Shown one piece after another: positions 20,370 through 52,169 of a stretch of 55,834 nucleotides of DNA (positions are counted from its first letter, which is position 1; each line of letters starts with the position of its first letter). Origin of the DNA: an uncultured Candidatus Saccharibacteria bacterium (GTDB taxonomy: Bacteria > Patescibacteriota > Minisyncoccia > Phycocordibacterales > UBA9973); assembly GCA_964450735.1 (NCBI GenBank), contig CAYVDC010000009.1, forward strand, positions 1 to 55,834, given 5' to 3'. Below the pieces are notes generated by a model, which was not told the DNA's origin, made no database searches, and saw only the letters and a program-made list of their open reading frames with translations. The translations under genes and the position numbers were made by a program.

Positions 20370-20445
20370 CACTAATTTTGTTTTTATATACCAAGTCTGT
20401 AGGAATAACCCTATCAGGATTTAAACTTTTGTGTATACTAATGAC

Positions 20446-22401: not shown

Positions 22402-22437
22402 TTTAATAAAACTAGGATTGAATCCAGACCCAACAAC

Positions 22438-23367: not shown

Positions 23368-23386
23368 ACTTTGCTATACTTACTTT

Positions 23387-24553: not shown

Positions 24554-24560
24554 TACTCCC

Positions 24561-35544: not shown

Positions 35545-35592
35545 AAACAAAAAACCGAGCTCAGATTTCCTGAACTCGGTCTTATATTGTGC
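35545..35592. repeat. Left copy of a 48-nt imperfect direct repeat (terminator-like), candidate island boundary
   Basis: aaacaaaaaaccgagctcagatttcctgaactcggtcttatattgtgc matches 52041-52088 at 39/48 positions by hand alignment, and at 23/24 over the right-hand 24 nt. It contains a hairpin (35554-35564 with 35570-35580) followed by a T-run on the minus strand. Confidence 0.6.
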
Positions 35593-35698
35593 TCCCAACT
35601 AGACGACGTTAGGACCTGTTTTGTTAATAACCCTGACCATACGTGGTTCCCTATCGTGGATATTTGGAGAGCTGAGAAAACATCGTCAGTATCGTAAT
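35587..35698. repeat. 112-nt imperfect-palindromic repeat, copy A
   Basis: It matches 42770-42881 at 97/112 positions without gaps (hand alignment). The arms gctcccaa...ttaggacc and ggttcccta...ttggagagc are inverted relative to each other. It lies exactly between a stop codon (35699) and a terminator. Confidence 0.8.
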
Positions 35699-36100
35699 TT
35701 ATATAAAATTCACCGAAAAATTATACATTCCCATCCCACATACTCCTTGTAATGGCTCACCTATTTTAGGGATACCAATATCAATGGTTTCTTCTCCAGT
35801 CTGTGGAAGAATCTTCTGATAGCCGATCGAGTGGATGGCAAGGGATGATGAGCAATCGTAAGTACCGTTTGTTTTGACGACGAGCTTTGTGGGGATCCCC
35901 GCCTTTGCTTCACTCACTTTTGGTGAATAGCCGGCTTTCGCATCAATCGTAATGTACTGAATGCCGTCTTTAACTTCAACATTTTGGACTGGCTGATTCG
36001 AGGCCACAGTATTGTCTTTTGATTTTGAACCACCAAAGAAAACAATGCCGAGTGCAACGACAAGCCCGAGAGTAATAATAATTGAAGCAGTTTTGTTCAT
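35699..36100 (-). CDS. Membrane-anchored cupredoxin-like metal-binding protein
   Basis: An N-terminal TM helix is followed by a beta-rich domain with Cys, His and Met candidates (TYDCSSSLAIHSIG...GVCGMGMY). It is the last gene of the metal operon. Confidence 0.5.
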   Translation of the reverse strand: MNKTASIIITLGLVVALGIVFFGGSKSKDNTVASNQPVQNVEVKDGIQYITIDAKAGYSPKVSEAKAGIPTKLVVKTNGTYDCSSSLAIHSIGYQKILPQTGEETIDIGIPKIGEPLQGVCGMGMYNFSVNFI

Positions 36101-36118
36101 ATATAAATTATATCAAAA

Positions 36119-37132
36119 TTAAATATTAAATAATGGATTGATAATGCCAAGTCCCGCAAGACCCGCAAGAAGTGCGAAGATTCCAAGACCAATCACCACG
36201 ATGCCAGCTGATTTAAAGAATAGTGGTGCATGCTTTGAGTGAGCAAACGATACTGATCCAAAAGAAAGGAGTGCGAGCACCGGAAGCGTACCGAGAGCAA
36301 ATGAAAGCATGATGAGAAATCCAGATGTGAATGATCCGCTCGAGAGTGCAGCGATCTGCATTGCTTGCGTAAATCCGCACGGCAGAAAGAATGTACCAAT
36401 ACCAATGAGGATCGGGGCAAGCGTTGAATGTTCCACTTTTCTGAAATAGGCAAAGATCCCGGTCGGCAGAGCTACTTTATTCTTCTTGATGATACCTACC
36501 AGATTAAGGCCGAGCAGTATCATCACACTCGAAGCAATAATTCCCAATATCGCAGAAAAAGTAAAACTCACACCAATAGCTTTACCAACCAATCCAAGCA
36601 GTCCACCGAGGACTGCAAAACCGAGAAGTCGGCCACCGTGAAAAAGGAAAAACTGTTTTTTGCTTGTGGTAGTGCTTTCATCCTGCGCGACTTTTGCAGA
36701 GAGCGAGAGGATTAAACCGCCTACAATGGCAAGACAACTCGATACAGATGCAATGAGACCAATGATAAAACTCGTCACCGGAGTAGTCGCACCACCTATG
36801 CCTAGATTAAGGATACCGGACTTTTGAAGTATGAAAAAAAGAATTAGGAATACAAGGCCGATTGGAAGTGCTTTCCAGATGAGATCGTCAGACTTTTTTT
36901 CCTGAATGACTTTCTCTACCGACAGCGTGTATCCGTTCGGTTTTACCTTACTTGTGAGAAGCTCGGCCATTGCTTCAATACTTTGGTCGCTATCGGTTTC
37001 AATCGTAACTGTTTCCTTTTTCAGATCAACTACTGATTTCTTAATATCTTTCTGCTCGCTCAATATATCCTCGATCAATATTTTGCATGAGGCGCAGTGC
37101 GTACCCGAAACGTGAAATGTGTATGTTTTCAT
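36119..37132 (-). CDS. HMA-domain fusion to a DsbD_2/TauE-like polytopic membrane protein
   Basis: The N-terminal heavy-metal-associated motif is FHVSGTHCASCKILIE. About 6 TM helices follow, containing FFLPCGFTQAMQ. Confidence 0.65.
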   Translation of the reverse strand: MKTYTFHVSGTHCASCKILIEDILSEQKDIKKSVVDLKKETVTIETDSDQSIEAMAELLTSKVKPNGYTLSVEKVIQEKKSDDLIWKALPIGLVFLILFFILQKSGILNLGIGGATTPVTSFIIGLIASVSSCLAIVGGLILSLSAKVAQDESTTTSKKQFFLFHGGRLLGFAVLGGLLGLVGKAIGVSFTFSAILGIIASSVMILLGLNLVGIIKKNKVALPTGIFAYFRKVEHSTLAPILIGIGTFFLPCGFTQAMQIAALSSGSFTSGFLIMLSFALGTLPVLALLSFGSVSFAHSKHAPLFFKSAGIVVIGLGIFALLAGLAGLGIINPLFNI

Positions 37133-37149
37133 AAATTATTTTGCTATTC

Positions 37150-39105
37150 CTAACAATTACTGCAGGTTCCATCAGAATGGTGATCTATTACTCTCACGCC
37201 ATCATACTGATAGAGACGCAATGAATTTATTACTACGAAGATAGTTACCCCAACATCAGCTACAATCGCCATAACAAGATTAGCGTTACCAGAAACGGCA
37301 AGCCCAAGAAATCCAATTTTAGTAATCAAAGCAAACGCGATATTGAAGCGAATAATGCCGTTTGATTTTTGTGCGATTGATATAAGTTCTGGTAATGCCG
37401 AAAGTTTATCGTTCATTATGGCAATATCTGCATTCTCAATTGCAACATCTGAGCCGGCAGAAGCCATCGCTATCCCGACGGAAGCGGTAGCCAACGCAGG
37501 AGCGTCGTTGACCCCGTCCCCAACCATAGCAACTGACCCATACTTCTTTTTGATTTCCTGAATTCGTGCAACTTTATCTTCAGGTAAAAGTGATGCGTAA
37601 ACTTCTTCGATGCCAACATTATTTGCAACTGCTTGTGCCGGAGCAGCGGTATCACCGGTGAGCATGATAGGTGTAATACCTATTTTTTTGAGTTCGGCGA
37701 TTGCACGTGCGCTATCTTTCTTGATTTCATCACTAACCCCCACGATTCCTTTAATTTCTTTTCCATTAGAAACGAAGATAATAGTCTTGCCTTGGTTTTC
37801 AAGTTCCCCTGCTTTTTTAGTGATACTATCATCGATCGCTCCATGTTCATCTCTCATATAGGCAAGTGTGCCTGCGCAACGGTGACTGTCAGTACATACG
37901 AGGCAAACTCCCTCTACTCCCTTGCCTGAAGTAGCTTTATAAGAATCGAATGTGTGTAAATTCAATTTCTTCTCGGCCGCATAGGCAATAATACTTTTTG
38001 AAATCGGGTGTTCAGAAAATGTTTCAAGCCCTGAAAGACATGAGATAACATCCTGCTCAGTATTATCGCCAAAAGGAATGACATCGGTCACAATCGGTGT
38101 ACCTTTGGTAATAGTACGAGTCTTATCGAAAGCTATCGCTTTGATTTTTCCCATTTCCTCCAGAAAGCGACCACCTTTGATAACAACCCCTTTACGCGAG
38201 GCATTGCCTACAGCTGAGAATACACTGACGGGAGTAGAAATGACTAAGGCGCATGGGCAGGAAATAATAAGGAGTGTTAACGCTTGAATAAACCACTTTT
38301 GGAATGGCTCATGAAAAATGAAAACGGGAATCACCACCAAAAGTATAGAAGAGAGCAAGATAAGTGGTGTATAATACTGAGCAAATTTTTCAATAAATGC
38401 TTGAGCATTTGATTTCCGCTCAGCTGCGTCATATGTAAGATTTATTATTTTCTGTAAAGTGCTTTCACTTGAGAGTTTCGTGACTTTTACTTCAAGATAT
38501 CCGTCACTTGCCACACTTCCTGCAAATACAGCATCACCAATTATTTTTGTTTTTGGAAGTGGCTCTCCGGTGATCGATGATTCATCTACTAGCGAATTGC
38601 CTGAAACAATCGTACCGTCAACTGGAATGATATCTCCATGCTTTACGATGATGATCATATCTATTACTAGTTCAGTTAATGACACAACTGTTCCGTTTTT
38701 AAGAGTTGCTTGTTTTGGTGTTTTGTTTACCAAATCTTGAAGCGAAGATTTACTACGGGAAATTCCAAAATCCTCAAGAACGTTTCCAAGAGAGAAAAGA
38801 ATTATCACAATCGCAGCTTCTTCAAGCTCGCCGATTGCGACTGCGCCAATAACGGCAATAGTCATTAAAAGATTGATGCTTGAAAAGCGAAGTTCCCACA
38901 GGCTCATGAGCCCTTTCTTAAAGACATCTCTGCCGAAAATAACGACAATGAGCCCTAACGCTGCAAGTTCTATGAGATATGGTAGATGTTTCCCAGAAAG
39001 AGACAGAGCCTCGAACGGAATAACCGCTACAAGAGCGATGAGCAAGTATTTAAATTTTTTATTTTGTATGAGTTCTTTAAACATAATTATTTTTCGTATC
39101 TCCAA
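37150..39105 (-). CDS. Heavy-metal-translocating P1B-type ATPase lacking an N-terminal HMA domain, with atypical DKTRT phosphorylation motif
   Basis: The motifs are TGEPLP, the CPC motif SCPCALVISTP, SEHPISK, MLTGD and [11 protein letters not shown]. The phosphorylation site reads AFDKTRTIT instead of DKTGT. The C-terminal tail is HHSDGTCSNC. Confidence 0.85.
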   Translation of the reverse strand: MEIRKIIMFKELIQNKKFKYLLIALVAVIPFEALSLSGKHLPYLIELAALGLIVVIFGRDVFKKGLMSLWELRFSSINLLMTIAVIGAVAIGELEEAAIVIILFSLGNVLEDFGISRSKSSLQDLVNKTPKQATLKNGTVVSLTELVIDMIIIVKHGDIIPVDGTIVSGNSLVDESSITGEPLPKTKIIGDAVFAGSVASDGYLEVKVTKLSSESTLQKIINLTYDAAERKSNAQAFIEKFAQYYTPLILLSSILLVVIPVFIFHEPFQKWFIQALTLLIISCPCALVISTPVSVFSAVGNASRKGVVIKGGRFLEEMGKIKAIAFDKTRTITKGTPIVTDVIPFGDNTEQDVISCLSGLETFSEHPISKSIIAYAAEKKLNLHTFDSYKATSGKGVEGVCLVCTDSHRCAGTLAYMRDEHGAIDDSITKKAGELENQGKTIIFVSNGKEIKGIVGVSDEIKKDSARAIAELKKIGITPIMLTGDTAAPAQAVANNVGIEEVYASLLPEDKVARIQEIKKKYGSVAMVGDGVNDAPALATASVGIAMASAGSDVAIENADIAIMNDKLSALPELISIAQKSNGIIRFNIAFALITKIGFLGLAVSGNANLVMAIVADVGVTIFVVINSLRLYQYDGVRVIDHHSDGTCSNC

Positions 39106-39120
39106 TTAAGATCCATTTCT

Positions 39121-39342
39121 TTAAATCATTTCTCCTTTCTCTTCAAGCTTCATATGATGAATAGTTGAAATAGCGATCCAAATTGCGATCAACATAAGTA
39201 ATCCTGAACAAAAGAGCATATGCTCGCGGTTAATTCCCCAAACCAAAGAATCTGCACCCATCGAAACAGCAATTAATGCAACAATGATACCAGCGAGGCC
39301 GACGATAACATTTGCTACGTGAAATATTTTTGATAGTTTCAT
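39121..39342 (-). CDS. Small two-TM membrane protein
   Basis: 73 aa with two hydrophobic helices, located inside the metal operon. Confidence 0.4.
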   Translation of the reverse strand: MKLSKIFHVANVIVGLAGIIVALIAVSMGADSLVWGINREHMLFCSGLLMLIAIWIAISTIHHMKLEEKGEMI

Positions 39343-39373
39343 AAATTTTATAAAATTAATTTAGACTAATAAT

Positions 39374-39559
39374 CTAACTCTTTAAATTTTCTGCAGGTAC
39401 GAGATTCATTCCACAATCCGGACAACTGCCCGGTTCATTCTTTTTTACATTAGGATGCATCGGACAAGTATATGAGCCGCTTTTTGACTTCATTGGAGTC
39501 TCGTCAGCACCACAACATCCACCTTCATGGGCACTATCTTTTGTATTATCCTGATTCAT
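39374..39559 (-). CDS. Small heavy-metal-binding domain protein (Cys4 zinc-ribbon-like HMBD)
   Basis: [24 protein letters not shown] matches the YTCPMHP...CPxCGM motif seen at the N-termini of Cus/Cop proteins. There is also a CC pair near the N-terminus. Confidence 0.6.
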
Positions 39560-39570
39560 ATTTAATATAA

Positions 39571-40053
39571 TTAATTACTAATAATATTTTTACTCAAAAA
39601 CCAGAACATTACACCAGTCCATATTGATATAAAGCCAAAAAGGAATATCAACCCAGAAAACGCATAAGTTACGATCCCAAGATTTAATGCAGTCGTTAAT
39701 GCTGTCGCAGTTACCCAAATATCTCGATTGACATTGGGTACCATTACAGCTTTTCCACTTTCATCAAAAACTGGTTTAGTATTTTGATCTACTTTTTGAA
39801 TTTGGCGTGGCATTTCTGAGTATGTTTTACCATCTGTAATTTTAAGGGTATGCTCTCTAATAATATCTGCTTGCGATTTTAGCGTCCATGGCCCGCGCAC
39901 TAGAACATTAGGAATAGAAGCGTCCGGAGGTGTTGTAATATTTTCCTTCACTACATTTTTATATGTAAAAGAAATTCCCCATAATCCACCAAGAACCATA
40001 ACGATTCCTGCTACAACTGCGAGTAAGGAAGAAAATATAAGTAATTTTTTCAT
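39571..40053 (-). CDS. Hypothetical two-TM membrane protein
   Basis: 160 aa with an N-terminal and a C-terminal TM helix flanking a soluble domain, located inside the metal operon. Confidence 0.45.
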
Positions 40054-40055
40054 AA

Positions 40056-42377
40056 CTATAATTTCATTGATTTAATTCGTAATGAATTACCGACCACACT
40101 CACACTACTCATCGCCATCGCGAATCCTGCAAATACTGGAGAGAGGAGCCAGCCAAAAATCGGAAAAAAGATTCCGGATGCAAGTGGAATGCCCACTATG
40201 TTGTAGATGAATGCCCAGAAAAGATTTTGCTTGATACCTCTCATTGTGATTTTGGAAAGTCTAATAGCTTTCACCAGTTTTGAAATATCTCCGCCAAGAA
40301 GAGTAATTCCTGCTGATTCGATAGCAACATCGGTCCCGGTTCCCATAGCAATACCTACATCAGCTTGTGCGAGGGCCGGGGCGTCGTTGACGCCATCGCC
40401 CGCCATTGCGACGATGTGTCCCTGTGACTGAAGCTCTTTTATTTTCTCTAGCTTATTCTCCGGCAGAACATGTGCAATTACTTCATCAATACCGACCAGT
40501 GAGGCGATATGCTTTGCGGCTTTCTCGTCGTCTCCAGTGAGCATGATAACTTTTATTCCCATCTTATGAAGCTGCGTTACTGCTTCCTTTGACTCAGGCT
40601 TTACTTCGTCGGCGACCATGACGAACCCAATTACTTTTTCTTTGGTGGCCAGAATGACTGGAGTTTTTCCTTGCGCTGTAAACTTTTCGATTGCCGTACT
40701 GTCGAATGAAATTCCAAGCTCCGTAATCAGCTTCGCATTACCTGCAAAATATTCCTTGCCCATGATTGAGCCCTTTACTCCCTTGCCTTGGATACCTTCA
40801 AAATGAGAGAGATCAGATACGGAAATATTTTTATCCTTGGCGTAACTCACGACCGCATGGGCAATCGGATGCTCTGATTTCTTTTCAAGTGATGCCAATA
40901 TGGATATCAATTCTTCATTCTTTAAATTCGAGAGGTTAACTATATCGACAAGCGTTGGTTTCCCTATCGTGATCGTTCCCGTTTTGTCGACGATAACAAT
41001 ATCGGCTTTATGAAGCTTCTCTAAGGTTGCTGCGTCTTTAATTAAGATTCCTTCTTTTGCACCTTTGCCTACGCCGACAATAATTGCAGTTGGTGTCGCA
41101 AGTCCGAGTGCGCATGGACAAGCAATGACTAGAACACCAACAAACGAGACGAGTCCGTATGAAAGCGCTTGCGGAAATCCGAGCGGTCCAATACCCAAGA
41201 AAAGCCATAAACCGAGTGATAGAAAAGCGATGACAAGAACAACGGGGACAAAAACTGCTGAGATTTTGTCAGCAAGTGCCTGAATCGGTGCTTTGCTTCC
41301 TTGTGCTTCTTCAACCATTTTGATGATCTGAGCGAGCAAAGTTTCCGATCCAACTTTTGTCGCTTTGAATGTAAACGATCCGCTTGTATTCATTGTTCCC
41401 GCTACAACACTGTCGCCAACTTTCTTTTGAGCAGGCATCGGCTCTCCGGTTACCATCGATTCATCTACATATGAGGAACCCTCAGTGATTATGCCGTCAA
41501 CGGGAATTTTTGCTCCCGGCTTCATAATAATGAGATCACCATGCTTCACTTCGTTCACAGATATTTCCATTTCCTTTCCGTCTCGAATAACTAGAGCAGT
41601 TTTCGCCTGAAGATTGAGAAGCTTTTCAATCGCATCACCTGTTTTGAGCTTTGAGCGGGATTCAAGATATTTTCCGAGAGCAATAAATGTGATGACTACA
41701 ATCGTCACATCATAATAGGTATGATCCACGTTAAGGAATGGCCGTAACACATCTTCGAAAGCTGTGACTGCAAAACTATATAGGTATGCGGCAACAGTTC
41801 CGATACCGATGAGTGTGTCCATATTTGCCTTGCCGTAGCGGAGAAAACGATAGAAGCCAAGAAGATAGGGCTTTCCGACAACGAAGAGCGTGTATGTCGC
41901 CATGAGTGGCAAAAGATGATGGAAAAATTCTTTGACTGTGTAACTCATAGCAGGGACCGCATGATATTGAGCCAGGATATCCCACGCCATAACAAAAATG
42001 CTGAAGATCGCAAGTGGAATCGCAGACATGACTTTTGTTTTCATATCTTTTATTTCAGAGAGTTTTTCCTCTTTTGATTGATTTAGTCCAAGATGCTCCG
42101 CATGCTCATTTTCGCTCATACCCATTTCAGTTGCGCTCATGTTATGCATGCTGTAATCCATAGGAGCAGGTACTACGAGGCTGTATCCCAGTGGTTCTAA
42201 CTTTTTATTGAAAGATTCGGGATTCGTTTTTGTCTCATCAAAAGATATTTTTGCATTTTCTGTGCCGTTGTTTACGGAAATTTCTTCAACACCGTCAACC
42301 TTTTTAATAGTGCGTTCAATGATGCTTGAACATGAAGCGCAATGCATTCCTTTTACTTTGTATGTTTTGGTATGCAT
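40056..42377 (-). CDS. copA: Copper-translocating P1B-type ATPase
   Basis: The N-terminal HMA motif is [20 protein letters not shown], the CPC motif [31 protein letters not shown] and [11 protein letters not shown] are all present. Confidence 0.9.
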
Positions 42378-42381
42378 AGAA

Positions 42382-42657
42382 TTATTTACGCTTTAATTTG
42401 TAAACCTTTAAAACTTCCTCCTTTGCTTTACCGACCTGTCCTGAAGACATTTGATGCTGCACGCAATGACCAAGGTGGTTTTCCAGAAGGGCATCTTCAA
42501 TACTCGAAAGCCCTTGCTTTACAGCAGAGGTCTGAGTGATCACGTCAATGCAATAGGTATCGTTCTCGATTAACTTCTGCAGTCCCCGAACTTGTCCCTC
42601 AATGAGCTTGAGGCGACGAACTATCTTTGCCTTATCTTTTTCATCCATGTATTTCAT
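42382..42657 (-). CDS. csoR: CsoR-family metal-sensing transcriptional repressor
   Basis: [33 protein letters not shown]...HLGHCV shows the C...H...C ligand pattern of Cu(I) CsoR. The start was set at M23 (MKYMDEK), 10 nt downstream of the operator palindrome. Confidence 0.8.
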
Positions 42658-42666
42658 AAAACGAGT

Positions 42667-42687
42667 ATATACCCCTAGGGGGTATAT
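42667..42687. promoter_or_regulatory. CsoR-type operator (GC-tract palindrome)
   Basis: atatacccctagggggtatat is a near-perfect palindrome of the TACCC-N-GGGTA type known for CsoR operators. It lies immediately upstream of csoR-copA. Confidence 0.7.
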
Positions 42688-42733
42688 GTCAAGAAAACAG
42701 TAATGTGTCCTCGGTCCAAACATTAAAATTGTA

Positions 42734-42767
42734 TAAAAAAATAGCCTTACAATGTAAGACTATTTTT
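42734..42767 (-). terminator. Hairpin with flanking A/T runs (terminator-like) downstream of repeat copy B
   Basis: tagccttac-aat-gtaagacta forms a 9-bp stem with one mismatch. It is flanked by aaaaaaa on the left and ttttt on the right. Confidence 0.45.
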
Positions 42768-42769
42768 CG

Positions 42770-42881
42770 TTGTGCTCCCTACTAGAGGACGTTAGGAACT
42801 GTTTTATAGAGAATCCTGACCATACATGGTTCCCTATAGTAGATATATGGAGAACTGAAAAAATATCGTCAGTATCGTAAT
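42770..42881. repeat. 112-nt imperfect-palindromic repeat, copy B
   Basis: It matches copy A at 97/112 positions and has the same context, lying between the stop of the 42890 gene and a terminator-like hairpin. Confidence 0.8.
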
Positions 42882-42889
42882 AATGGATT

Positions 42890-43489
42890 CTATTGAGGAG
42901 CACACGCAATCCAAACTTCTTGTATTTTTGAAAGTTCTGCTATTTCTCCTGTATCAGAGCCCCACTTTTCTAAGAATTTTTTTGCTAACCCTTTCAATTG
43001 AACCTCTCTTTCTTCTAAAGGAAGATTTCTAAGTTCTTGATTTACTCTCATTAAAAAATGCCATGCAACAAACCTGTGATTACCATCTACAACAGCATAC
43101 TTACCTTCTTTTAATAATAAACATATTGGCTTAGGGAACATTCCTGTTTCTAAGAGATACCGAGCAGCATTTAACCAACGATTCCTCCCAGACTCCCCCA
43201 TAGTCATACCAAAATACGTTTCCTCAGGTTTTTTTGTGTATCCATCAAACATTTCCTTAAAAACCTTAGACCACTCCTCGGAGTATGGAATAGTACTTAG
43301 ATCTAGAAATTCCTTTCTCCATTCAACCTTCTGCCAAAATTCAAAATTCTCAGTAAACAGAACTCCGTTCCAGTTCTCTACGGGAGGCCAACCATGTTTC
43401 TCATAATAAGGTTCAATCCAATCTTTTATTATGTCGTCAGGAAAATTGGGTAAATCTTTCTTAATATGCTCAAACTTATTTATTTCCAT
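42890..43489 (-). CDS. ParB/Srx-fold (ParB-like nuclease domain) protein, third gene of the SIR2-HerA operon
   Basis: It carries the signature KYAVVDGNHRFVAWHF (DGxHR). Its ATG at 43489 overlaps the HerA stop (ATGGAAATAA). Confidence 0.55.
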   Translation of the reverse strand: MEINKFEHIKKDLPNFPDDIIKDWIEPYYEKHGWPPVENWNGVLFTENFEFWQKVEWRKEFLDLSTIPYSEEWSKVFKEMFDGYTKKPEETYFGMTMGESGRNRWLNAARYLLETGMFPKPICLLLKEGKYAVVDGNHRFVAWHFLMRVNQELRNLPLEEREVQLKGLAKKFLEKWGSDTGEIAELSKIQEVWIACAPQ

Positions 43490-45375: not shown

Positions 45376-45380
45376 AAGTA

Positions 45381-46559
45381 TTACTCATTTGTTCCTTCAT
45401 TAGTAGGTTCTTTTTCTGAGATATCTTCGCAGTTTATCTTATGAAGCAAAACATCGATAATTTTTTTATTTATCGTTGGAAAATCATATTTAAACTCATC
45501 TTTTTTCAATCCATCACTTCCATCTATTTGTTCTGGGGAAATAATTTCAATATTATTATTTTTTATATTATTCTTACCGAATCTTTCTCCTATTTCCTTC
45601 TTAGCTTTAGCACTGTGAGCAATAACATAAATCATGAGTGTAGGATTTGAGTTTGCTGCTCTTAATGTTATTTCACATATATGTTCATCAGAAAAAGAGA
45701 ATCCCATTACAAAAAGAACTGTGTTTTCTTTTTCAAGCTCGTTTGAGTATAAACGCAATAGCTCATAATATGTTTGATTCATAAGAGTATGTTTGAATTT
45801 CTCTTTAGTTGGATTAACAACTATTAAGAGACTCTCATAGGCTTCCATGAATATATCTAGCGAGGGATCCACCGCCATACCTGTAGCTGCCGCAATAAGA
45901 GTGTCGATTGTTGAAGTATCTGAAATAGGTAATATCTTACTGCTATCAATATTCTTTCCTGCTACTTTTTTTATATGTTCTAGTCCGTATGAAAAAATAA
46001 CATCGTTGTTTTTTATTTCCCACGACAAGGATCCGTGCAACTTTGAGAGATTGAACACGGGGAGCTCAGCTGTATTATCATAATGTAAACTTTTTTTGAA
46101 GTGGGATTTTTTAAAATTACTTAGACTGAATTTAGGTTCAAATCTACCATTAAATCCATCGTTATACTCGAGGTTTAAATCCTCCAACGCTTTTTCTAAA
46201 AAAATATCAACATTTGTAGTAAATATATTAGCTTCTTTACTCAGTAAAGTAACTTTCCTTTTAAGGAGAATGGAATTTAAAGCTTTAAGGAAAAACCTAT
46301 ACTGTTCAAGAACCACAAGCACATCTGCGTCAGGTATTAATATATTTGGATTTTTTTCAATTACTTCGTCAAAGTACTTTTTATAAAGCGAGGCTCTAAT
46401 AATTTTTTTAACGCCAGAATCAAGCTCTCCCCGCTTTTCAAGTTCGCTAAGCAAGGTCTCAATACTACCTAGAGTTTTAAGATAAGGCGAAGAAAGCCCT
46501 GAGCCCATCAGGAAATTAATATTACAATCTTGAATTATATCTTTGATTTTATCGTGCAT
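45381..46559 (-). CDS. SIR2-like (SIR2_2-type) NAD-binding domain protein
   Basis: The motifs NFLMGSGLSSPYL (GxGxS), FNLSKLHGSLSW (catalytic-His context) and LFVMGFSFSDEHI are present. The gene lies 5 nt upstream of the HerA gene. Confidence 0.75.
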   Translation of the reverse strand: MHDKIKDIIQDCNINFLMGSGLSSPYLKTLGSIETLLSELEKRGELDSGVKKIIRASLYKKYFDEVIEKNPNILIPDADVLVVLEQYRFFLKALNSILLKRKVTLLSKEANIFTTNVDIFLEKALEDLNLEYNDGFNGRFEPKFSLSNFKKSHFKKSLHYDNTAELPVFNLSKLHGSLSWEIKNNDVIFSYGLEHIKKVAGKNIDSSKILPISDTSTIDTLIAAATGMAVDPSLDIFMEAYESLLIVVNPTKEKFKHTLMNQTYYELLRLYSNELEKENTVLFVMGFSFSDEHICEITLRAANSNPTLMIYVIAHSAKAKKEIGERFGKNNIKNNNIEIISPEQIDGSDGLKKDEFKYDFPTINKKIIDVLLHKINCEDISEKEPTNEGTNE

Positions 46560-46838
46560 ATTTTATATGAATCCATTCTAAGTTTCGTAAGTCTTGAAGC
46601 AAGAAGACACGAAGGGCATCAAATAGAGAAATATGATGGATTAAAGCATTAAATAGCACAATTATCAAATTAAATCTGATTTTAAAGTTTAGAAAAACTT
46701 TAAGTTTCTGAAAGACAGGAACATTAAAATCTACTCTTTTAAATGAAGCTTTGTTTACTTACATAACATAGTCCAAAATGAATTATAAATCATTAATCAA
46801 TTTGTTTAAAAAAACAAAAAAACATTCTTATGGAAGGT

Positions 46839-46991
46839 CTAATTTGCCTTTTTGCTAATTTTTTTACTTGTTACCTCCTGCAAAACCTTATTCTTCGTCT
46901 TAATATACTTACCTAGCGCCTCACTAGCCTCCTTTCTTATTTGTTTTAGGGTTTTTCCCTGAGTGCTTATTAAAAACATTAGTCTTTTCAT
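46839..46991 (-). CDS. Possible small basic protein (50 aa)
   Basis: Hand translation gives MKRLMFLISTQGKTLKQIRKEASEALGKYIKTKNKVLQEVTSKKISKKAN. It lies 15 nt downstream of the 47007..47438 gene. Coding status is uncertain. Confidence 0.25.
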   Translation of the reverse strand: MKRLMFLISTQGKTLKQIRKEASEALGKYIKTKNKVLQEVTSKKISKKAN

Positions 46992-47006
46992 TTTTATAAC
47001 TTTGGG

Positions 47007-47438
47007 TTAATTTCTCATAAGCCTAACCTTTTTTAAAAACAGCTTTTTAGTCTTTTGGTAAATTTCTCCTTTATTACCTGCGGAATCTTCAAAACCTTCT
47101 TCTTTAAGGGTTCGGGTAATTTTTGTACACAAACCATCTATTGCTGAGTAATTGATTACATTACCATCAGTAATAATCTCTTTGAGATCTTCAGGATTTT
47201 GATATTTGATTAAATCTTGTATTCTATTTTCTAATCGGAGATCTTTAATGTAATGATAAGTAACAAAACTCAAAACTAGAATTCCGCAAAAACCTGCGCC
47301 GACCTCTAACCCAAGTAATTTTTCAAATAGATTCGCGAGCAGAAAGATTAATACCAGAAAGCCAACATATAAGGCAATTAACCCCAATCTCGGGATAAAG
47401 ACGTCCATTAACCAAACTATTATTTTTTCTGTTTTCAT
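47007..47438 (-). CDS. Hypothetical two-TM membrane protein with soluble C-terminal domain
   Basis: 143 aa with the helices LGLIALYVGFLVLIFLLANLF and GAGFCGILVLSFVTYHYI. Confidence 0.45.
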   Translation of the reverse strand: MKTEKIIVWLMDVFIPRLGLIALYVGFLVLIFLLANLFEKLLGLEVGAGFCGILVLSFVTYHYIKDLRLENRIQDLIKYQNPEDLKEIITDGNVINYSAIDGLCTKITRTLKEEGFEDSAGNKGEIYQKTKKLFLKKVRLMRN

Positions 47439-47465
47439 AAAATCAAATTATGTAAATTAAATACA

Positions 47466-47640
47466 AAAAGCCCACCACATGGAGTTGAGGGCTTTTACAC
47501 CCTCCCTACCTGTTTCCAAGTAGGGCCTGCAAAGACAAATCTCCATAATGATGGGTTCTTTATGTCTTTGCAGGACTCGCTTCACCATGCCGCCGATTAC
47601 TCGAGGGTTTAGGCTACTCTATTAAGTTGTAACCCTACGA
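47466..47640 (-). ncRNA. Candidate structured small RNA (minus strand) in the primase upstream region
   Basis: Four hairpins are present. The first is a perfect 12-bp stem pairing 47526-47537 with 47563-47574. The second is a 6-bp stem pairing 47504-47509 with 47520-47525. The third is a 6-bp stem pairing 47604-47609 with 47631-47636. The fourth is a terminal hairpin pairing 47466-47473 with 47489-47496, followed by a T-run on the minus strand. No ORF is present. Strand and extent are inferred only. Confidence 0.25.
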
Positions 47641-47726
47641 TACCATTTTTGAGCAATTTGTCTAACGAGATTTGCACTTGCATTATTTTTCTATAAGTTC
47701 TAAACTGCCGACAGCAGTAATGCTTT

Positions 47727-47831
47727 CAGATAATTTTTAAGATAACATTACCTTTTACTCGCAGAGAATACACCCGATAATTTCTAAGATAATATTTCAG
47801 ATAATTTAAAGATAAACGCTCGTTTATCTTT
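47727..47831. repeat. Iteron-like array (six direct [ac][ag]GATAA units plus an 11-bp inverted repeat), candidate replication origin or Rep-binding region
   Basis: The direct units are cagataattt (47727), aagataac (47739), cgataattt (47775), aagataat (47786), cagataattt (47798) and aagataaac (47809). The inverted repeat pairs aaagataaacg (47808-47818) with cgtttatcttt (47821-47831). Confidence 0.55.
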
Positions 47832-47978
47832 TTTGCTTTTAAATTCACAAATTCGAGTGTAATTTCCGAACGTTACTAAGTAGTCCATTGCTTACTTGGC
47901 AGGTCTCGCCTATTGGCGTTCGGAAAACCTACCAAGTAAGGAGTGGATTTTCTTATTGGCTTAAGAAGATTACATAAC

Positions 47979-50213
47979 ATGAATAAATTAGTGATTGCTG
48001 AGGCGCTTAAACTGCATGCCCTTGGTTGGAGTATCATCCCGGTTGGAAAAGATAAGCGTCCATTACTAGCGTGGAAAGAGTTTCAAGAGCGGGTATCTAC
48101 GATAGATGAAATAAAATTATGGTTTAGTACTTGGCCGGATGCAAATATAGCAGTTGTGACTGGTCCAATATCAGGGATAGTAGTTCTCGATATTGATGCC
48201 AAACATAATCGTTCGATAAAAGAGTTTCAGATTCCACCTACCATAATTTCAAAAACTGGAGGAGGTGGATCTCATGTTTTCTTCAAATATCCAGGTAAAC
48301 TAGTGCCGAACTCAAACGGTTCTCTATTGGGTGTAGGTGTCGATATTAAGGGAGATGCGGGGTATGCAATACTACCTCCCTCCTCACATGCGTCAGGGAA
48401 TAACTACGCATGGCAAGAACTTTGTGCTCCAGGAGAAATGGAACTAGGGGAAATTCCTGAATGGTTAAGTAAAAAACTATTCTCTAGCAATCAAAGTCAT
48501 ACCCCTAAATTATGGGAAAAAGATCCTTCAGAAATAATTGAAGGAGGAAGAAATGAGGCGGCCGCATCTATGGCAGGAAAAATTATGAGCTTGGTACCAC
48601 CCAATCAGCTAGATACTGTTGGCTGGGATAGATTTGGCTTTTGGAACCACCGTTTACCTAGTCCTCTACCACCAAAGGAACTTAGAGCAGTATGGGAGAG
48701 TATTAAAAAATATCAGGCGGCTGATTCCAAGGAAATTAAAGATAAAAATGAATCCATCTCACAAAAAATTATAAACATAATATTGAATGAATCTGATGCA
48801 ATGCTATTTCATAACGAACAAAGTGATGCATATATATGTATAAAAATCCTAAACAGATGGGAGGTGTGGCCGTGCAGAAGTAAAAATATAAAACGTCTGT
48901 TATCTAGTATCGCTTGGCAAAAATTAAAAAACCCCTTAGGATCTGAAGCTCTAAAAAGTATTATCGCTGTACTTGAAGGAAAAGCGATTTTTGAAGGACC
49001 TAAAATAAAATTAAGTAATAGAGCTGCTCTCCATGAGAATGAACTTTGGTACGACTTAACTAACGAAAAATGGCAGGCGGTAAGAATAAATAAAGACGGC
49101 TGGAATATTATAGAGAAACCGCCTATTCTTTTTACTAGGTACTCACATAATAAATCACAGGTGATGCCTAGCAAGGAAGGAGATGTAAAATTATTCTTAA
49201 ACTACATCAATATAACTGACGCAGAACAACGATTACTTCTTTTAGTATTTTTAGTTAGCAGTTTTATTCCTGATTATCCTCATGTAATGTTGATAATTTT
49301 TGGATCTCAAGGTTCTTCCAAATCTACATTATCGAAACTAATGAGGCTTATTATCGATCCCTCAACAATTGAAGTCGCCAGTCTACCAAGTAGAAATAAT
49401 GAACTGATCCAGATGCTCGCACATCACTATTTCATTTTTTTTGATAATTTGTCTTATATCAATGACGAGCAGTCCGACACTATATGTAAAGCAATTACTG
49501 GAAGTGGTTTTGCAAAACGGGAATTATATGAGAATGATGAGGATATAATTTATAGCTTCATGCGACGTTTAGGAATAAACGGTATAAATCTTGTGGCTAA
49601 TCGTGCCGATCTATTAGAACGAAGCCTATTAATAGAACTTCAAAGAATAGACCCTAGAAACAGAAAATCAGAGCGTGAACTATATGAAAATTTCTACAGA
49701 GATCTACCGGCAATCATAGGTGGAGTATTCGAAGTATTAGTTAAAGCATTAAAAATTAAACCTACTATAGAATCAGAATCTCTTCCCAGAATGGCAGATT
49801 GGACTCTTTGGGGTTGTGCAATTGCCGAAGCAATGGGGTATACGAAAGAAAAATTCCTATATGCTTATGAAAATAATATAAAACGCCAGACGGAAATGCT
49901 CTTAAATGAAAACATTGTCGCCACTGCAATTATCACGTTTATGGAAGATAAAGATAAGTGGCGATCTACACCTACAGATTTATTAACCAATCTAGTAAAT
50001 CAGGCTAGTTTTACAAATATTGATACCCGTGAAAAGTATTGGCCTAAAGGAGCGGGTGCACTATCTAGGAGGTTGAATGAATTAAGTACTCCTTTAAAAC
50101 AAATGGGATTTCTAGTAACAATCAGTACTTCTGGAACAGAGCGTTGGATCGAAATACAAAAAACAACTAAATTAAAACCTGACGATACTGACAGTATTTC
50201 TCAGACAATATAA
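47979..50213 (+). CDS. Bifunctional primase-polymerase (Prim-Pol) with PriCT-like segment and C-terminal P-loop (SF3/D5-like) NTPase
   Basis: The Prim-Pol motifs are GWSIIPVGKDKRPLLAWKEFQ, VVLDIDAKH and GGGGSHVFF. The PriCT-like segment is EGGRNEAAASMAGKI. Walker A is FGSQGSSKSTLSKL and Walker B is FIFFDNLS. The ORF-track start 47943 (GTG) overlaps an AAGGAG, so ATG 47979 is used here, but the true start is uncertain. Confidence 0.85.
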   Translation: MNKLVIAEALKLHALGWSIIPVGKDKRPLLAWKEFQERVSTIDEIKLWFSTWPDANIAVVTGPISGIVVLDIDAKHNRSIKEFQIPPTIISKTGGGGSHVFFKYPGKLVPNSNGSLLGVGVDIKGDAGYAILPPSSHASGNNYAWQELCAPGEMELGEIPEWLSKKLFSSNQSHTPKLWEKDPSEIIEGGRNEAAASMAGKIMSLVPPNQLDTVGWDRFGFWNHRLPSPLPPKELRAVWESIKKYQAADSKEIKDKNESISQKIINIILNESDAMLFHNEQSDAYICIKILNRWEVWPCRSKNIKRLLSSIAWQKLKNPLGSEALKSIIAVLEGKAIFEGPKIKLSNRAALHENELWYDLTNEKWQAVRINKDGWNIIEKPPILFTRYSHNKSQVMPSKEGDVKLFLNYINITDAEQRLLLLVFLVSSFIPDYPHVMLIIFGSQGSSKSTLSKLMRLIIDPSTIEVASLPSRNNELIQMLAHHYFIFFDNLSYINDEQSDTICKAITGSGFAKRELYENDEDIIYSFMRRLGINGINLVANRADLLERSLLIELQRIDPRNRKSERELYENFYRDLPAIIGGVFEVLVKALKIKPTIESESLPRMADWTLWGCAIAEAMGYTKEKFLYAYENNIKRQTEMLLNENIVATAIITFMEDKDKWRSTPTDLLTNLVNQASFTNIDTREKYWPKGAGALSRRLNELSTPLKQMGFLVTISTSGTERWIEIQKTTKLKPDDTDSISQTI

Positions 50214-50218
50214 TTTAT

Positions 50219-50374
50219 ATGGCAATCTCACCAGAACAACTGGAGAGATTCATTAAACTGTATTCTAACGAGTATGGGGTTATTTTGAGCGAAGAAAAAG
50301 CTATTAGCGAAATAAACAAATTAGCCCAACTCTATAGAGCTGTATATCGAAATAAACAAGGCAATACGGTATAA
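50219..50374 (+). CDS. Possible small protein (51 aa) between primase and recombinase
   Basis: Hand translation gives MAISPEQLERFIKLYSNEYGVILSEEKAISEINKLAQLYRAVYRNKQGNTV. It starts 6 nt after the primase stop and is below the ORF-track cutoff. Confidence 0.35.
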   Translation: MAISPEQLERFIKLYSNEYGVILSEEKAISEINKLAQLYRAVYRNKQGNTV

Positions 50375-50381
50375 TATCCAG

Positions 50382-50479
50382 GCTACACGTTGGATTATCA
50401 TTAATCGTTTTAAGCTCAGGAGAGGGGCTGACAGAGTCTTACGTGTAGCAACTTAAGACGATTAACTGTCATCCCCTCT
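50382..50479 (+). promoter_or_regulatory. Three interleaved inverted repeats upstream of the recombinase gene
   Basis: S1 pairs 50382-50390 with 50441-50449 (9 bp, perfect). S2 pairs 50401-50414 with 50452-50465 (14 bp, one T:G). S3 pairs 50421-50434 with 50466-50479 (14 bp, one mismatch). The order is S1 S2 S3 S1' S2' S3'. Confidence 0.5.
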
Positions 50480-50501
50480 TTTGAGTTTTTAACCAAATAT
50501 T

Positions 50502-52142
50502 ATGCAAGCAATTAAAGCGACAAAATACATCGCATATCTCCGTAAATCTACAGACGACAAAGAGAAGCAGATGCTTTCATTAGAAAGCCAAGCGGAGGTT
50601 ATAAAAAGACTCCAGGTACTTCATGATGTTACCATCATAGAAACAATAGAGGAAAAGCAATCCGCAAAAATGCCAGGACGACCGGGGTTCGACAAAATGA
50701 TGAATATGATCGAAAAAGGGAAAGCAGACGGAATCATTACTTGGCAGATTAGTCGCCTTTCCAGAAACATGAAGGACTCTGGACAGATGATGTATCTTAC
50801 TGACTGCGGACTACTTAAAACAGTAATTACAGAACAAACAACATACTCTAAAGATTCCATGGAACAATTTATGTTTGGACTTCAATCACTTACTGCCAAA
50901 CTTGAAAATGATAGGACTGCTTATAATGTTAAAACCGGAATGACCACATGTGCTCGTAAAGGAATTTATCCTGCTTGCCCACCTCTTGGTTATTTAACAG
51001 ATCGTGGAGGTATTAAAGGCGCACGAAAAAGAGAAATTGATCCCATTCGCTTTCCTATTATTCGAAGAATGTGGGACCTAATGCTCACGGGAAGTTACAC
51101 ACCTTATGAAATACTTAACAAGGCTACAGAATTATGGGGATTAAGAAATCGTAACAATATAAAACTTTGTAAGTCACAGATTTATAATATTTTTAATAAT
51201 ACTTTTTACTATGGTGAATTTGAATGGCCGATTGGTAGCGGAGATACCTACAAAGGAATTCATCAACCGATGGTAACGCGGGACGAATTTGATCGAGTTC
51301 AAAAAATGATTGGAAAAACGGGACGCTCCCGCCCTTTAAAACACCACTTCCCTTTTGCAGGCTGTTCTTTATCTTGCAGTGAATGTGAATCCGCTATTTC
51401 AGGATATGAAAAATTCAAAACACAAAAGAATGGGAACAAACACCAATATCGTTATTATGGTTGCAACAAAAGAAAGAAAACAATTTGCACTCAAAAACCA
51501 ATGAGGGAAGATATGTTGGATGAGCAGATAGAAATAGTGTTGAAATCCATTCAGATTCCCGAAGGCGTCCACGAACTATTAATGGAAATCATTAGAGATG
51601 AGAACAAAGTCCAGTTCGAAGCTATATACGCCCAGAATGAGGCCAATAAACAAGCATACGGCCTTATGCTAAAAAAGATTGATGGGCTTATTGATATGCG
51701 AGCTACGGGCCTTATAGACGATACCCAGTTTCAAAGTAGGAGAATAGAAGCTGAAAAGGAACGAGACCGCTTGAGAGAACTAATTAAGAACACAGATCAG
51801 AATGTAACGGGTTGGATTGATACTGCAGACAAGATGTTTACATTTGCTGAACATGCAGTAAATCGCTTCAAAGGTGCTGACAATAATACTAAACGAGAGA
51901 TACTCACTAGTTTAGGTTGGAACCTGTCTATAAAGGAAAGAAAGCTAGATTTATCAAGGGAAAACTGGATTGTACCAGTTCAAAGTATGGCAAAAGTGAT
52001 AAATGAAAATCTAGCTCGGTTGGAACCTATTTCACCCATAAAACAAAAGACCGAATCCAGAAAATCTGAACTCGGTCTTATACTGTGCACGGGAGAAGAC
52101 TTGAACTTCCATTCCCTTGCGGGAGCTACCACCTCAAGGTAG
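50502..52142 (+). CDS. Large serine recombinase (resolvase/invertase N-terminal domain, recombinase domain, zinc-ribbon)
   Basis: The N-terminus is YLRKSTDDKEKQMLSLESQ. GIITWQISRLSRN is also present, and the Cys-rich ribbon reads CSECESAISG...YRYYGCNKRKKTIC. The last 57 nt overlap the antisense tRNA-Leu. Confidence 0.9.
   Translation: MQAIKATKYIAYLRKSTDDKEKQMLSLESQAEVIKRLQVLHDVTIIETIEEKQSAKMPGRPGFDKMMNMIEKGKADGIITWQISRLSRNMKDSGQMMYLTDCGLLKTVITEQTTYSKDSMEQFMFGLQSLTAKLENDRTAYNVKTGMTTCARKGIYPACPPLGYLTDRGGIKGARKREIDPIRFPIIRRMWDLMLTGSYTPYEILNKATELWGLRNRNNIKLCKSQIYNIFNNTFYYGEFEWPIGSGDTYKGIHQPMVTRDEFDRVQKMIGKTGRSRPLKHHFPFAGCSLSCSECESAISGYEKFKTQKNGNKHQYRYYGCNKRKKTICTQKPMREDMLDEQIEIVLKSIQIPEGVHELLMEIIRDENKVQFEAIYAQNEANKQAYGLMLKKIDGLIDMRATGLIDDTQFQSRRIEAEKERDRLRELIKNTDQNVTGWIDTADKMFTFAEHAVNRFKGADNNTKREILTSLGWNLSIKERKLDLSRENWIVPVQSMAKVINENLARLEPISPIKQKTESRKSELGLILCTGEDLNFHSLAGATTSR
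52041..52088. repeat. Right copy of the 48-nt imperfect direct repeat (tRNA-Leu terminator plus the last 3 nt of the tRNA)
   Basis: aaacaaaagaccgaatccagaaaatctgaactcggtcttatactgtgc matches 35545-35592 at 39/48 positions. It contains the minus-strand terminator hairpin (52049-52060 with 52066-52077). Confidence 0.6.
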
Positions 52143-52169
52143 TGCGTCTACCAGTTTCGCCACCCGTGC
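52086..52169 (-). tRNA. tRNA-Leu (anticodon GAG), class II with long variable arm
   Basis: The reverse complement folds as a cloverleaf. The acceptor pairs GCACGGG with CCCGTGC. The anticodon stem pairs CTACC with GGTAG around loop TTGAGGT. The variable arm is TCCC-GCAA-GGGA, and the T-arm is GGAAG-TTCAAGT-CTTCT. Confidence 0.9.

Follow-up and report, generated by a model that had tools for sequence, protein, structure and literature searches.

A Two-Module Island at the 3' End of tRNA-Leu in a Saccharibacteria Contig, Probably Built by a Large Serine Recombinase That Splits Its Own Gene on Integration

Introduction

The region between positions 35545 and 52169 of a 55,834-nt stretch of DNA from an uncultured Candidatus Saccharibacteria bacterium (contig CAYVDC010000009.1 of assembly GCA_964450735.1; the full stretch is hereafter called the window) raises the question of how a metal-resistance operon, a defense operon, a primase gene, and a recombinase gene came to be assembled beside the 3' end of a tRNA-Leu gene, and which of the repeats around them belong to the host and which to mobile DNA. 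A previous sequence-only reading had proposed two related elements integrated successively next to this tRNA, with a 112-nt repeat acting as a general element arm, a 48-nt repeat whose right copy would be the native tRNA terminator, and a metal-resistance element deprived of its recombinase and primase. Here, we consider it likely that the region is a two-module array made by site-specific recombination at the 3' end of tRNA-Leu(GAG), catalyzed by a large serine recombinase (LSR). In the text below, L### denotes the genomic loci compared and P#### the LSR protein homologues, which number 120.

Results

Recombinase Gene and Its Detached Tails

The open reading frame (ORF) of the LSR (50502-52142, plus strand) crosses the right copy of the 48-nt repeat and then proceeds for 57 nt into the antisense strand of tRNA-Leu, a point absent from the sequence-only reading. 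The features on which the argument depends, including the presumed parts of the attachment (att) sites, are listed below with the evidence for each.

35545-35592, minus strand: B0, predicted displaced host terminator of tRNA-Leu, left copy of the 48-nt repeat and left arm of the outer junction J1 (folding; counterpart in L030)
35588-35592, no strand: core TGTGC of J1, the outer attL-type junction (same 5 nt at the other junctions)
35590-35697, plus strand: tail_A, putative LSR 3' end cut off from its gene (Cys codon, then 34 codons and TAA), forming the core of the first 112-nt repeat (open in the LSR frame only)
35593-42775, no strand: module A, comprising tail_A, the metal operon, and hairpin X, without recombinase
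42726-42770, minus strand: X, hairpin terminator, left arm of the inner junction J2 (folding; related hairpins in relatives)
42771-42775, no strand: core TGTGC of J2, the putative attL of module B (sequence)
42773-42880, plus strand: tail_B, putative LSR 3' end cut off from its gene (Cys codon, then 34 codons and TAA), forming the core of the second 112-nt repeat (frame, homologues, dN/dS)
42776-52088, no strand: module B, comprising tail_B, the SIR2-HerA operon, Prim-Pol, and LSR; autonomous
50502-52088, plus strand: 5' part of the LSR gene, codons 1-529, ending in LGLILC at the core (Pfam Resolvase, Recombinase, Zn_ribbon_recom)
52041-52088, no strand: P arm, right copy of the 48-nt repeat; the plus strand codes for LSR residues 514-529 and the minus strand forms an intrinsic terminator right after tRNA-Leu
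52089-52142, plus strand: LSR ORF end specific to the integrated state, with 17 codons (TGEDLNFHSLAGATTSR) before the stop, antisense to tRNA-Leu (same ending in homologues)
52085-52169, minus strand: tRNA-Leu(GAG), whose 3' end is the right arm of the attachment site (ARAGORN)

As it stands in the window, the LSR has 546 aa. When position 52088 is joined to either 42776 or 35593, the LSR frame stays open for 34 more codons and reaches a TAA exactly at the end of the 112-nt repeat (563 aa for the join to 42776), and the other two frames of the 112-nt repeats contain stops. A homologue search with the joined 563-aa protein as the query separated two classes of C-termini. The first (P0001-P0007, P0024, and P0031) ends in LC followed by T, A, or S, then GEDLN...ATTSR and a stop, which is the antisense peptide of tRNA-Leu. 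The second (P0008, P0011-P0019, and others) runs on unbroken from MC into SLLQDVRNSFINNPDRTWFPIVDQW, matching the peptides of the two 112-nt repeats of the window (CSLLEDVRNCFIENPDHTWFPIVDIWRTEKISSVS and CSQLDDVRTCFVNNPDHTWFPIVDIWRAEKTSSVS), with tail_A in particular matching the unbroken C-termini of P0011-P0019; at the nucleotide level, an unsplit P-core-tail sequence is present in L052. The detached tails (seven from five loci) exhibited pairwise dN/dS values of 0.05-0.29, a pooled pN/pS of 0.23, and 12, 8, and 21 variable sites at codon positions 1, 2, and 3, respectively, and tail_A compared with other tails gave a dN/dS of 0.12-0.26. Because the joined frame stays open, relatives possess the tail unbroken, and the detached tails evolve as coding DNA, we place the attP site inside the LSR ORF, 34 codons ahead of its stop. 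The 112-nt repeat, previously taken for a general element arm, would instead represent the cut-off 3' end of the LSR gene (34 codons and the stop). Crossover is predicted inside the 5-bp core TGTGC; read on the tRNA strand, this core takes in the final two bases of the acceptor stem, the discriminator base, and two bases beyond.

The protein itself conforms to this enzyme family. Its resolvase domain (PF00239, 2.7e-21, residues 10-154) bears a YLRKST motif with S16 invariant in the homologue alignment, and two further domains were detected (PF07508, 6.5e-08; PF13408, 3.6e-06); the Pfam scan detected no tyrosine recombinase in the 35-52 kb region, where the recombinase is the serine enzyme. An AlphaFold2 (AF2) model of the intact homologue P0018 (overall predicted local distance difference test, pLDDT, 82.6) displays zinc-ribbon strands separated by two long helices (356-403 and 409-460), and its top Foldseek matches were the SPbeta, phiC31, Bxb1, and LI integrases (E values from 8e-19 to 1e-9). 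In this model, the crossover point falls between a helix at 515-525 and the last two helices at 528-542 and 551-563 (pLDDT ~75-86).

The arrangement extends beyond the window and beyond tRNA-Leu. An LSR located at the island edge, convergent with the tRNA gene (tDNA) and with its 3' end over the att site, was found in the window, L001, L003, L008, L012, L021, and L022. In L001, L003, L008, and L012, the convergent gene is also tRNA-Leu, and the LSRs of L021 (7482-9059) and L022 (9860-11557), distant members from bacteria of the candidate phyla radiation (CPR), end inside a tRNA-Glu (9021-9093) and a tRNA-Pro (11538-11612), respectively. In approximately 56 of the 120 homologues, the C-terminal sequence is of the kind expected from tRNA antisense. 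From these sequences, a large CPR clade with many different tRNA targets seems to have its LSR genes split at tRNAs as a rule.

Some observations on the homologue set are recorded in their own right. The more distant CPR homologues (P0033-P0120; 35-40% identity) mostly end in antisense peptides of tRNA T-arm/acceptor type (...DLDSNQD..., ...QDSNLRP..., ...GIEPR...), and a minority of distant CPR homologues conserves an unbroken (D/E)DVRT tail. The closest relative with an unsplit LSR, P0008 (L052:808-2511), is nested in the tRNA-Leu clade. Its 5.9-kb contig also carries a TraD/VirD4-like ATPase fragment, an NYN nuclease, an HTH protein, and a DNA methylase, and such an element may exist here in extrachromosomal or conjugative form; a check of this contig for a free circle revealed no terminal overlap.

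Junctions and Terminator Arms

Both repeats noted in the sequence-only reading were recovered by repeat search. The 112-nt copies (35587-35698 and 42770-42881) are 87% identical. The 48-nt copies (35545-35592 and 52041-52088) share 81% identity (39/48), unevenly distributed, with 23 of 24 matches in the inner half beside TGTGC and 16 of 24 in the outer half; their global-alignment score lies 8.3 standard deviations (SD) above shuffled controls, and the right copy covers the last 4 nt of the tRNA-Leu assigned by ARAGORN. The motif TGTGC was confirmed at all three junctions of the window (35588-35592, 42771-42775, and 52084-52088), these 5 nt being the only ones common to all of them, and the J1 core recurs at the junctions of L012, L013, L044, and L046. 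The AT-richness that had been noticed also held: the flanks have GC contents of 43.5% and 44.7%, against 41.1% for 35593-42775 and 34.8% for 42776-52088, which puts module B ~9 points under the host, and GC at third codon positions (GC3) is 0.25-0.34 in 42776-52088 against 0.43-0.50 in most of the sampled host genes. The array reads, in order, B0; tail_A, metal module, and hairpin X; tail_B, SIR2-HerA, Prim-Pol, and the LSR 5' part; and tRNA-Leu.

An empty site, the comparison which the sequence-only reading had called for, emerged from a metagenome scan with the tRNA-Leu 3' end that returned 16 contexts. In L030, a response regulator (RR) gene, one kinase-like gene, a B0-type terminator, tRNA-Leu, and L19 follow one another with the RR ~1 kb off and no island in between. 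Across the 48-nt unit, tRNA-Leu, and L19, L030 matches the window at 90.9% identity, and its terminator by itself matches B0 at 87.8%, with a compensatory change from G-C to T-A that keeps the stem; this terminator aligns better to the left 48-nt copy (score 33) than to the right one (24). Since L030 has a B0-type terminator directly beside tRNA-Leu, the insertion of 35593-52088 next to tRNA-Leu is supported at the sequence level, and for the same reason the left 48-nt copy, rather than the right one as formerly suggested, would be the displaced host terminator, the right copy being element DNA. The L030 arrangement also overturned an intermediate candidate in which the left copy was a mere LSR remnant and X the sole native terminator.

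Terminators are the recurrent trait of the arms. On the tRNA strand, B0 folds into a hairpin of -22.6 kcal/mol followed by UUUUUUGUUU, the P arm into one of -22.0 kcal/mol followed by the U-run UCUUUUGUUUU, and X into one of -14.6 kcal/mol with a U-run; the B0 arm, the X arms (window, L013, and L044), and several P arms all place a hairpin with a U-run immediately 3' of the tRNA. The P arm is accordingly predicted to serve as the replacement terminator of tRNA-Leu while being encoded inside the recombinase gene, a case of dual coding; its stem is kept in L001 by a compensatory change from C-G to A-U. At this position, L003 and L014 bear different hairpins, and L008 and L012 none. The left arms at the junctions (B0, the X-type arms, L012, L044_t3, and L046) are unrelated to each other apart from being terminators, and aligning the tail arm against the tRNA arm at every offset produced at best 12/28 matches. 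X reads in the LSR frame as having a TAA six codons ahead of the core and has no likeness to any P arm, suggesting that it is not LSR-derived and would constitute the right end of module A, with X/tail_B as the attL of module B; before module B came, X would have been the sequence beside tRNA-Leu. Related hairpins ending in TTTTCGTTGTGC, the X-type motif, stand at both internal junctions of L044. The same motif lies directly beside tRNA-Leu in L041, where the preceding sequence has no comparable hairpin fold, and L013 displays the same hairpin as X with the variant end TTTTTTAATTGTGC.

The likeness between B0 and the P arm admits two explanations, either that B0 is a fossil P arm of an older element or that the P arm of this lineage copied the host arm. 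The former, in which B0 would be the last 48 nt of an older, decayed element of the same lineage kept as the tRNA terminator and no mimicry would be involved, is close to an even chance in our judgment, falling just short of it. Only one LSR lineage (window, L013, and L001) has the hairpin that B0 and P share, the other lineages having other hairpins or none; the required decay route is directly visible in L013, described below; and no known mechanism would let an LSR element copy a host arm. In the LSR frame, moreover, B0 reads KQKTELRFPELGLILC where the LSR itself reads KQKTESRKSELGLILC, but the A-rich start of the 48 nt could match Lys/Asn codons by composition alone. The left boundary of B0 also coincides between the window and L030, with no further LSR remnant upstream, and the contrast between 23/24 inner and 16/24 outer matches fits functional constraint or copying better than uniform decay; the uneven identity and the common boundary nevertheless do not decide between the fossil and the copied arm. 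A derivation of the P arm from the family P arm via a compensated frameshift gave scores against other lineages only 0.8-3 SD above shuffles. Likeness of attB and attP beyond the core was not observed in the family members L012 and L014, and the core spans only 5 bp, so that the earlier caveat that LSRs do not generate long direct repeats falls away.

The island-free tRNA-Leu contexts also yielded a separate observation. Past the terminator, L032, L038, and L042 (~60-100 nt from tRNA-Leu), as well as L028 and L039, bear an inverted partial copy of a tRNA 3' end (...TTCAAGTCTTCTCC..., ...CTCCCGTGCAC...), which could be a convergent tRNA or the scar of another integration system.

Modular Arrays in Related Genomes

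Further loci exhibit the same anatomy with different contents. In L012 (GCA_040384245.1), the LSR reads into tRNA-Leu and a tail is located 4.9 kb upstream of it; TGTGC stands at each of the two joints, and attL and attR show no further likeness. L014 and L044, which lie on the same contig of a Candidatus Saccharibacteria metagenome-assembled genome, harbor three tails that delimit three modules, including the same metal module. In L044, the first module follows host DNA and consists of a tail, GT/HAD and Na_Ca_ex genes, and a hairpin-TTTTCGTTGTGC end; the second of a tail, cupredoxin, DsbD_2, CopA, and CsoR genes, and again a hairpin-TTTTCGTTGTGC end; and the third of a tail with a 1-nt deletion, HigB, M78, Beta_protein, P4cII, Prim-Pol, and LSR genes, ending at tRNA-Leu. 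L044 thus combines two modules without an LSR and one with it, and the window one without (A) and one with (B). The metal module of L046, on the same contig as L003, likewise starts with a tail, located after the cupredoxin gene. Prim-Pol is conserved beside the LSR in L003, L008, and L014.

Within L044, the tail on the LSR side (L044:7014-6919, equivalent to L014:1979-2074) shows its deletion as TCCCTTTAGAC against TCCCTATTAGAC and meets a stop after three codons, and both outer tails, those of the recombinase-less modules, are intact. Because the LSR-side tail is broken, a full LSR would be restorable there only by the joint excision of two or three modules. A second LSR of 465 aa (Resolvase, Recombinase, and Zn ribbon) was also observed in L012 (15359-16756), 3.7 kb past the L19 side and with no adjacent tRNA.

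L013, whose strain matches 10.7 kb of the left flank at 96.5% identity, contains X/tail, two genes, and an LSR cut to its last 133 nt beside the tRNA, without the metal module, and appears from its sequence to be a decayed copy.

Such decay bears on the origin of module A, which the sequence-only reading took for an element that had lost its recombinase and primase. This loss, by deletion of an own LSR and Prim-Pol from a full element, we regard as doubtful. L013 demonstrates that the process occurs, and tail_A is a genuine LSR 3' end that has diverged in the manner of coding DNA. X, however, is seemingly not LSR-derived, and the two recombinase-less modules of L044 end in the same way as module A (a hairpin-TTTTCGTTGTGC at the core), a uniformity that independent deletions would not yield. 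Module B likewise lacks any X-like site (TTTTCGTTGTGC with at most one mismatch) between its cargo and its backbone. A drop-out of the backbone leaving the cargo behind was rejected as well, the exact TTTTCGTTGTGC being found only at module junctions and at the tRNA-Leu of L041. Rather than being stripped of its recombinase, module A may therefore have been mobilizable without one from the start, since the common design of the three recombinase-less modules, which recurs for two cargoes in another genome, points to a class of mobilizable modules and not to three similar deletions.

Cargo of the Modules

The gene content proposed from the sequence (metal operon, defense operon, Prim-Pol, and LSR) was matched by Pfam and PADLOC. 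The cargo genes of both modules are as follows.

35699-42723, minus strand: metal-resistance cargo of module A (Pfam; same operon bounded by tail and hairpin in L044 and L046)
35699-36100, minus strand: cupredoxin (Pfam)
36119-37132, minus strand: HMA/DsbD_2 (Pfam)
37150-39105, minus strand: P-type ATPase (Pfam)
39121-39342, minus strand: 73-aa protein (ORF)
39374-39559, minus strand: HMBD (Pfam)
39571-40053, minus strand: 160-aa protein (ORF)
40056-42377, minus strand: CopA-type ATPase (Pfam)
42382-42650/42723, minus strand: CsoR (Pfam; palindrome near 42668-42686)
42890-46559, minus strand: cargo of module B, consisting of a 199-aa protein (42890-43489), HerA (43480-45375), and SIR2 (45381-46559) (PADLOC, Pfam)
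47943-50213, plus strand: Prim-Pol primase with a C-terminal NTPase region, replication module (Pfam Prim-Pol, 8.2e-30)

With a CsoR (PF02583, 9.9e-24) and ATPase genes bearing E1-E2_ATPase, Hydrolase, and HMA domains, the operon of module A is predicted to confer metal resistance of the CsoR/CopA type. This cargo travels widely, its DsbD_2 being 75-93% identical across many CPR contigs. The tail was ruled out as a universal mark of the metal operon, since L047 and L049 have operons without it (DsbD_2 identity of 87-92%), the latter on a contig also bearing tRNA-Met/Asp genes. The operon of L047 (6341-11780; DsbD_2 87%) was observed at a tRNA-Ser(TGA) on a 609-kb contig, with repeats of the tRNA-Ser 3' end (ATGCGGAGGCGGTGAGATTC) on both sides, and because these repeats flank it and no LSR tail is present, L047 is a different integration system carrying the same metal cargo. 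By sequence comparison, the metal operon is a promiscuous cargo with no intrinsic tie to the split-LSR system. Just upstream of csoR, every copy of the metal operon has the palindrome ATACCCCTAGGGGGTAT (window 42668-42686, L014:1866-1884, L003:3380-3400, and L047 ~6740), presumably the CsoR operator.

In module B, PADLOC assigned adjacent and co-oriented HerA (9.4e-173) and SIR2 (6.2e-61) genes, in agreement with the Pfam domains DUF87 and SIR2_2, and the pair is a predicted anti-phage system; the cargo of module B has a GC3 of 0.25-0.30. The co-oriented gene of the 199-aa protein overlaps the HerA 3' end and has no Pfam or PADLOC match; its VVDGNHRF motif is, we presume, reminiscent of ParB/sulfiredoxin-type nuclease domains, and the protein may be a third component of the SIR2-HerA operon.

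Elsewhere in the window, a tRNA-His(GTG) is followed at 20298-25520 by five co-oriented ORFs of 289-388 aa without a Pfam match. The stretch from 20298 to ~26.7 kb has a GC content of 40.5%, under that of its surroundings, and may be another variable region.

Proposed Mechanism and Order of Arrival

In the proposed mechanism, integration would cut the LSR gene so that codons 1-529 stay on the tRNA-proximal side and the last 34 codons and the stop go to the tRNA-distal side. B0/tail_A and X/tail_B would then be attL-type junctions and P/tRNA an attR-type junction, and an exchange between attR and one of the two attL sites would release either B alone or A and B together, the LSR being completed by tail_B or tail_A, respectively. 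Judging from the sequences, excision may still be possible today. The variety of left arms suggests that the target would be recognized mainly via its tRNA side, and recognition of that kind, tolerant of varied left arms, would explain repeated insertion at the same tRNA. On the AF2 model, the tRNA-derived 17-residue peptide would replace the last two predicted helices and might thereby change the activity or direction of the LSR.

A bolder extension would turn the locus into a tRNA-anchored cassette system, in which the serine recombinase excises and inserts units made of tail, operon, and hairpin-TTTTCGT-TGTGC at a site defined mainly by the right arm (tail or tRNA), with the C-terminus swap between a full tail and a tRNA-derived peptide acting as an activity or direction switch free of any recombination directionality factor (RDF); we deem this unlikely.

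Tandem accretion is supported, and the proposal of two related elements beside tRNA-Leu stands insofar as both would belong to the same recombination system, each tRNA-distal end consisting of TGTGC and the 112-nt unit. Their order of arrival is a matter of inference: A and B may have inserted here successively or come as a composite. The composite is favored because metal and LSR modules recur together in three distant hosts, the metal module lying directly tRNA-distal of the LSR module in the window, L014/L044, and L003/L046 (~70% LSR and L19 identity). Its strictest form, a pre-formed A+B circle integrated once at B0/tRNA-Leu with X/tail_B as a relic from an earlier host, seems to us a reasonable possibility, though with somewhat less than an even chance. 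CsoR, X, and the tail form one contiguous stretch that is 80.6% identical in L014, and the inner 24 nt of B0 match the P arm at 23 positions, which X does not, as would be expected if B0/tRNA were the preferred target of the LSR. On the other side, tail_A and tail_B are only 87% identical, which implies separate module histories in any case, and successive insertion stays possible because an X/tRNA site exists, the X-type arm of L041 lying directly beside tRNA-Leu, and so does an X/tail without the metal module, in L013.

Several points weigh against an array assembled by LSR recombination. L030 is only moderately close, its RR region being 75% identical with an extra gene between the RR and B0. 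Canonical LSRs do not target attR-type sites, so that a tolerance of varied left arms would have to be assumed, and the integrated 546-aa LSR may be inactive. Some copies are probably immobile, because the LSR-side tails are broken in L044_t1 (the 1-nt deletion) and L003 (a degenerate tail). IMG/VR viral contigs scanned with the LSR alignment contained no relatives, the element being not recognizably phage in IMG/VR, and neither a circular junction nor a restored attB from the source strain was seen in the collections searched, which contain no reads.

Taken to the extreme, these points would make the array a fixed, vertically inherited, and immobile relic with the repeats as scars. LSR divergence does follow L19 divergence across hosts (~70-79% at the nucleotide level), and broken tails and missing circular forms agree with immobility. 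Yet the cargo differs wholly between hosts around a conserved backbone, both L013, at strain level, and L030 differ from the window in their content at the site, module B retains its GC deficit, and both tails of the window and the LSR 5' part are intact ORFs. We consider such a relic very unlikely and keep to the recombination-built array.

Discussion

The locus is thus best understood as an array in which every module would be headed by the missing 3' end of the recombinase gene. For the biology of CPR bacteria, this provides a route for swapping defense and metal-resistance operons at one hotspot in very small genomes, and the detached tail offers a simple marker to delimit islands and arrays in CPR genomes. 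Tools relying on tDNA repeats would miss these islands, because only 5 bp are repeated. Our literature searches found no description of a split-LSR array system in CPR bacteria, and the known systems resemble it in part.

In layout only, integrons are similar, having an array of promoter-proximal, recombinase-less cargo units, each with a conserved hairpin-bearing recombination end, beside one recombinase gene; IntI, however, is a tyrosine recombinase acting on attC sites folded as single strands and without a tRNA anchor, whereas the window encodes a serine enzyme. Composite staphylococcal cassettes (SCCmec) are moved by the Ccr serine recombinases (CcrAB or CcrC) at rlmH. Together with the tandem accretion of integrative and conjugative elements (ICEs) and cis-mobilizable elements (CIMEs) of the ICESt1 family (cited within PMC3146451), they share with the window an att-flanked recombinase-less element in tandem with an autonomous one and the possibility of co-excision. 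ICESt1 differs in its tyrosine recombinase and identical core repeats, and neither ICESt1 nor SCC splits its recombinase gene by integration.

An attP inside an element gene has precedents in phage Mx8, where it lies in the tyrosine integrase gene (IntP/IntX; PMC6070905), and in the integration-dependent immunity of mycobacteriophages, where it lies in the repressor gene (PMC4557955). As proposed here, integration swaps the 3' end of the gene, so that the free and integrated proteins differ, but those systems use tyrosine recombinases and have neither arrays nor a reusable tail on recombinase-less modules. The coding sequence that would double as the terminator of the target tRNA adds a case of dual coding.

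With phiC31, Bxb1, SPbeta, and LI, the LSR of the window has in common the domain set and the fold and, as predicted from its junctions, short att sites and a small crossover core. Canonical LSR systems have attP outside the int ORF. Their directionality is governed by a separate RDF, and none was identified in the window island; an LSR with an integration-dependent C-terminus is therefore a candidate for RDF-independent direction control in genome engineering. Serine integrases were not known to target tRNA genes at the time of the Islander paper (2014; PMC4383910). The loci described above add LSRs that end in tRNA genes and probably target them, and the C-termini of the homologues suggest that this is common in CPR bacteria.

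The nearest published parallel is that of the tandem ssrA genomic islands (ssrA-GIs) of Dehalococcoides with the LSR DsiB (McMurdie et al. 2011, PMC3146451), located at a tDNA 3' end. There, too, the 3' end of an LSR gene at the island edge extends across the att site, so that the stop codon comes from neighboring DNA, and some islands without an integration module were proposed to be cis-mobilizable and gained by accretion (PMC3146451). The window shares with them the LSR at the island edge, convergent with the tDNA, and arrays that mix autonomous and recombinase-less modules. It differs in its target, which is tRNA-Leu and not tmRNA, and in its boundaries, which are marked by the LSR tail and a 5-bp core in place of a tDNA direct repeat of ~20 bp. 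A small partner recombinase (DsiA/CcrA-like) is present in the ssrA-GIs, whereas the Pfam scan of the module B proteins of at least 143 aa found no second Resolvase-domain protein. The authors of that study speculated that the integrase would be complete only on the circle or beside an island with 'the requisite 3' gene fragment' (PMC3146451); in Dehalococcoides, the C-terminal part was reported as divergent. For the present system, hosted by a CPR bacterium (Saccharibacteria), this 3' fragment has been identified as a conserved coding sequence present on every module and evolving under purifying selection, which supplies a sequence-level answer to the question, raised in 2011 for Dehalococcoides, of whether an att-overlapping LSR gene is completed on the circle.

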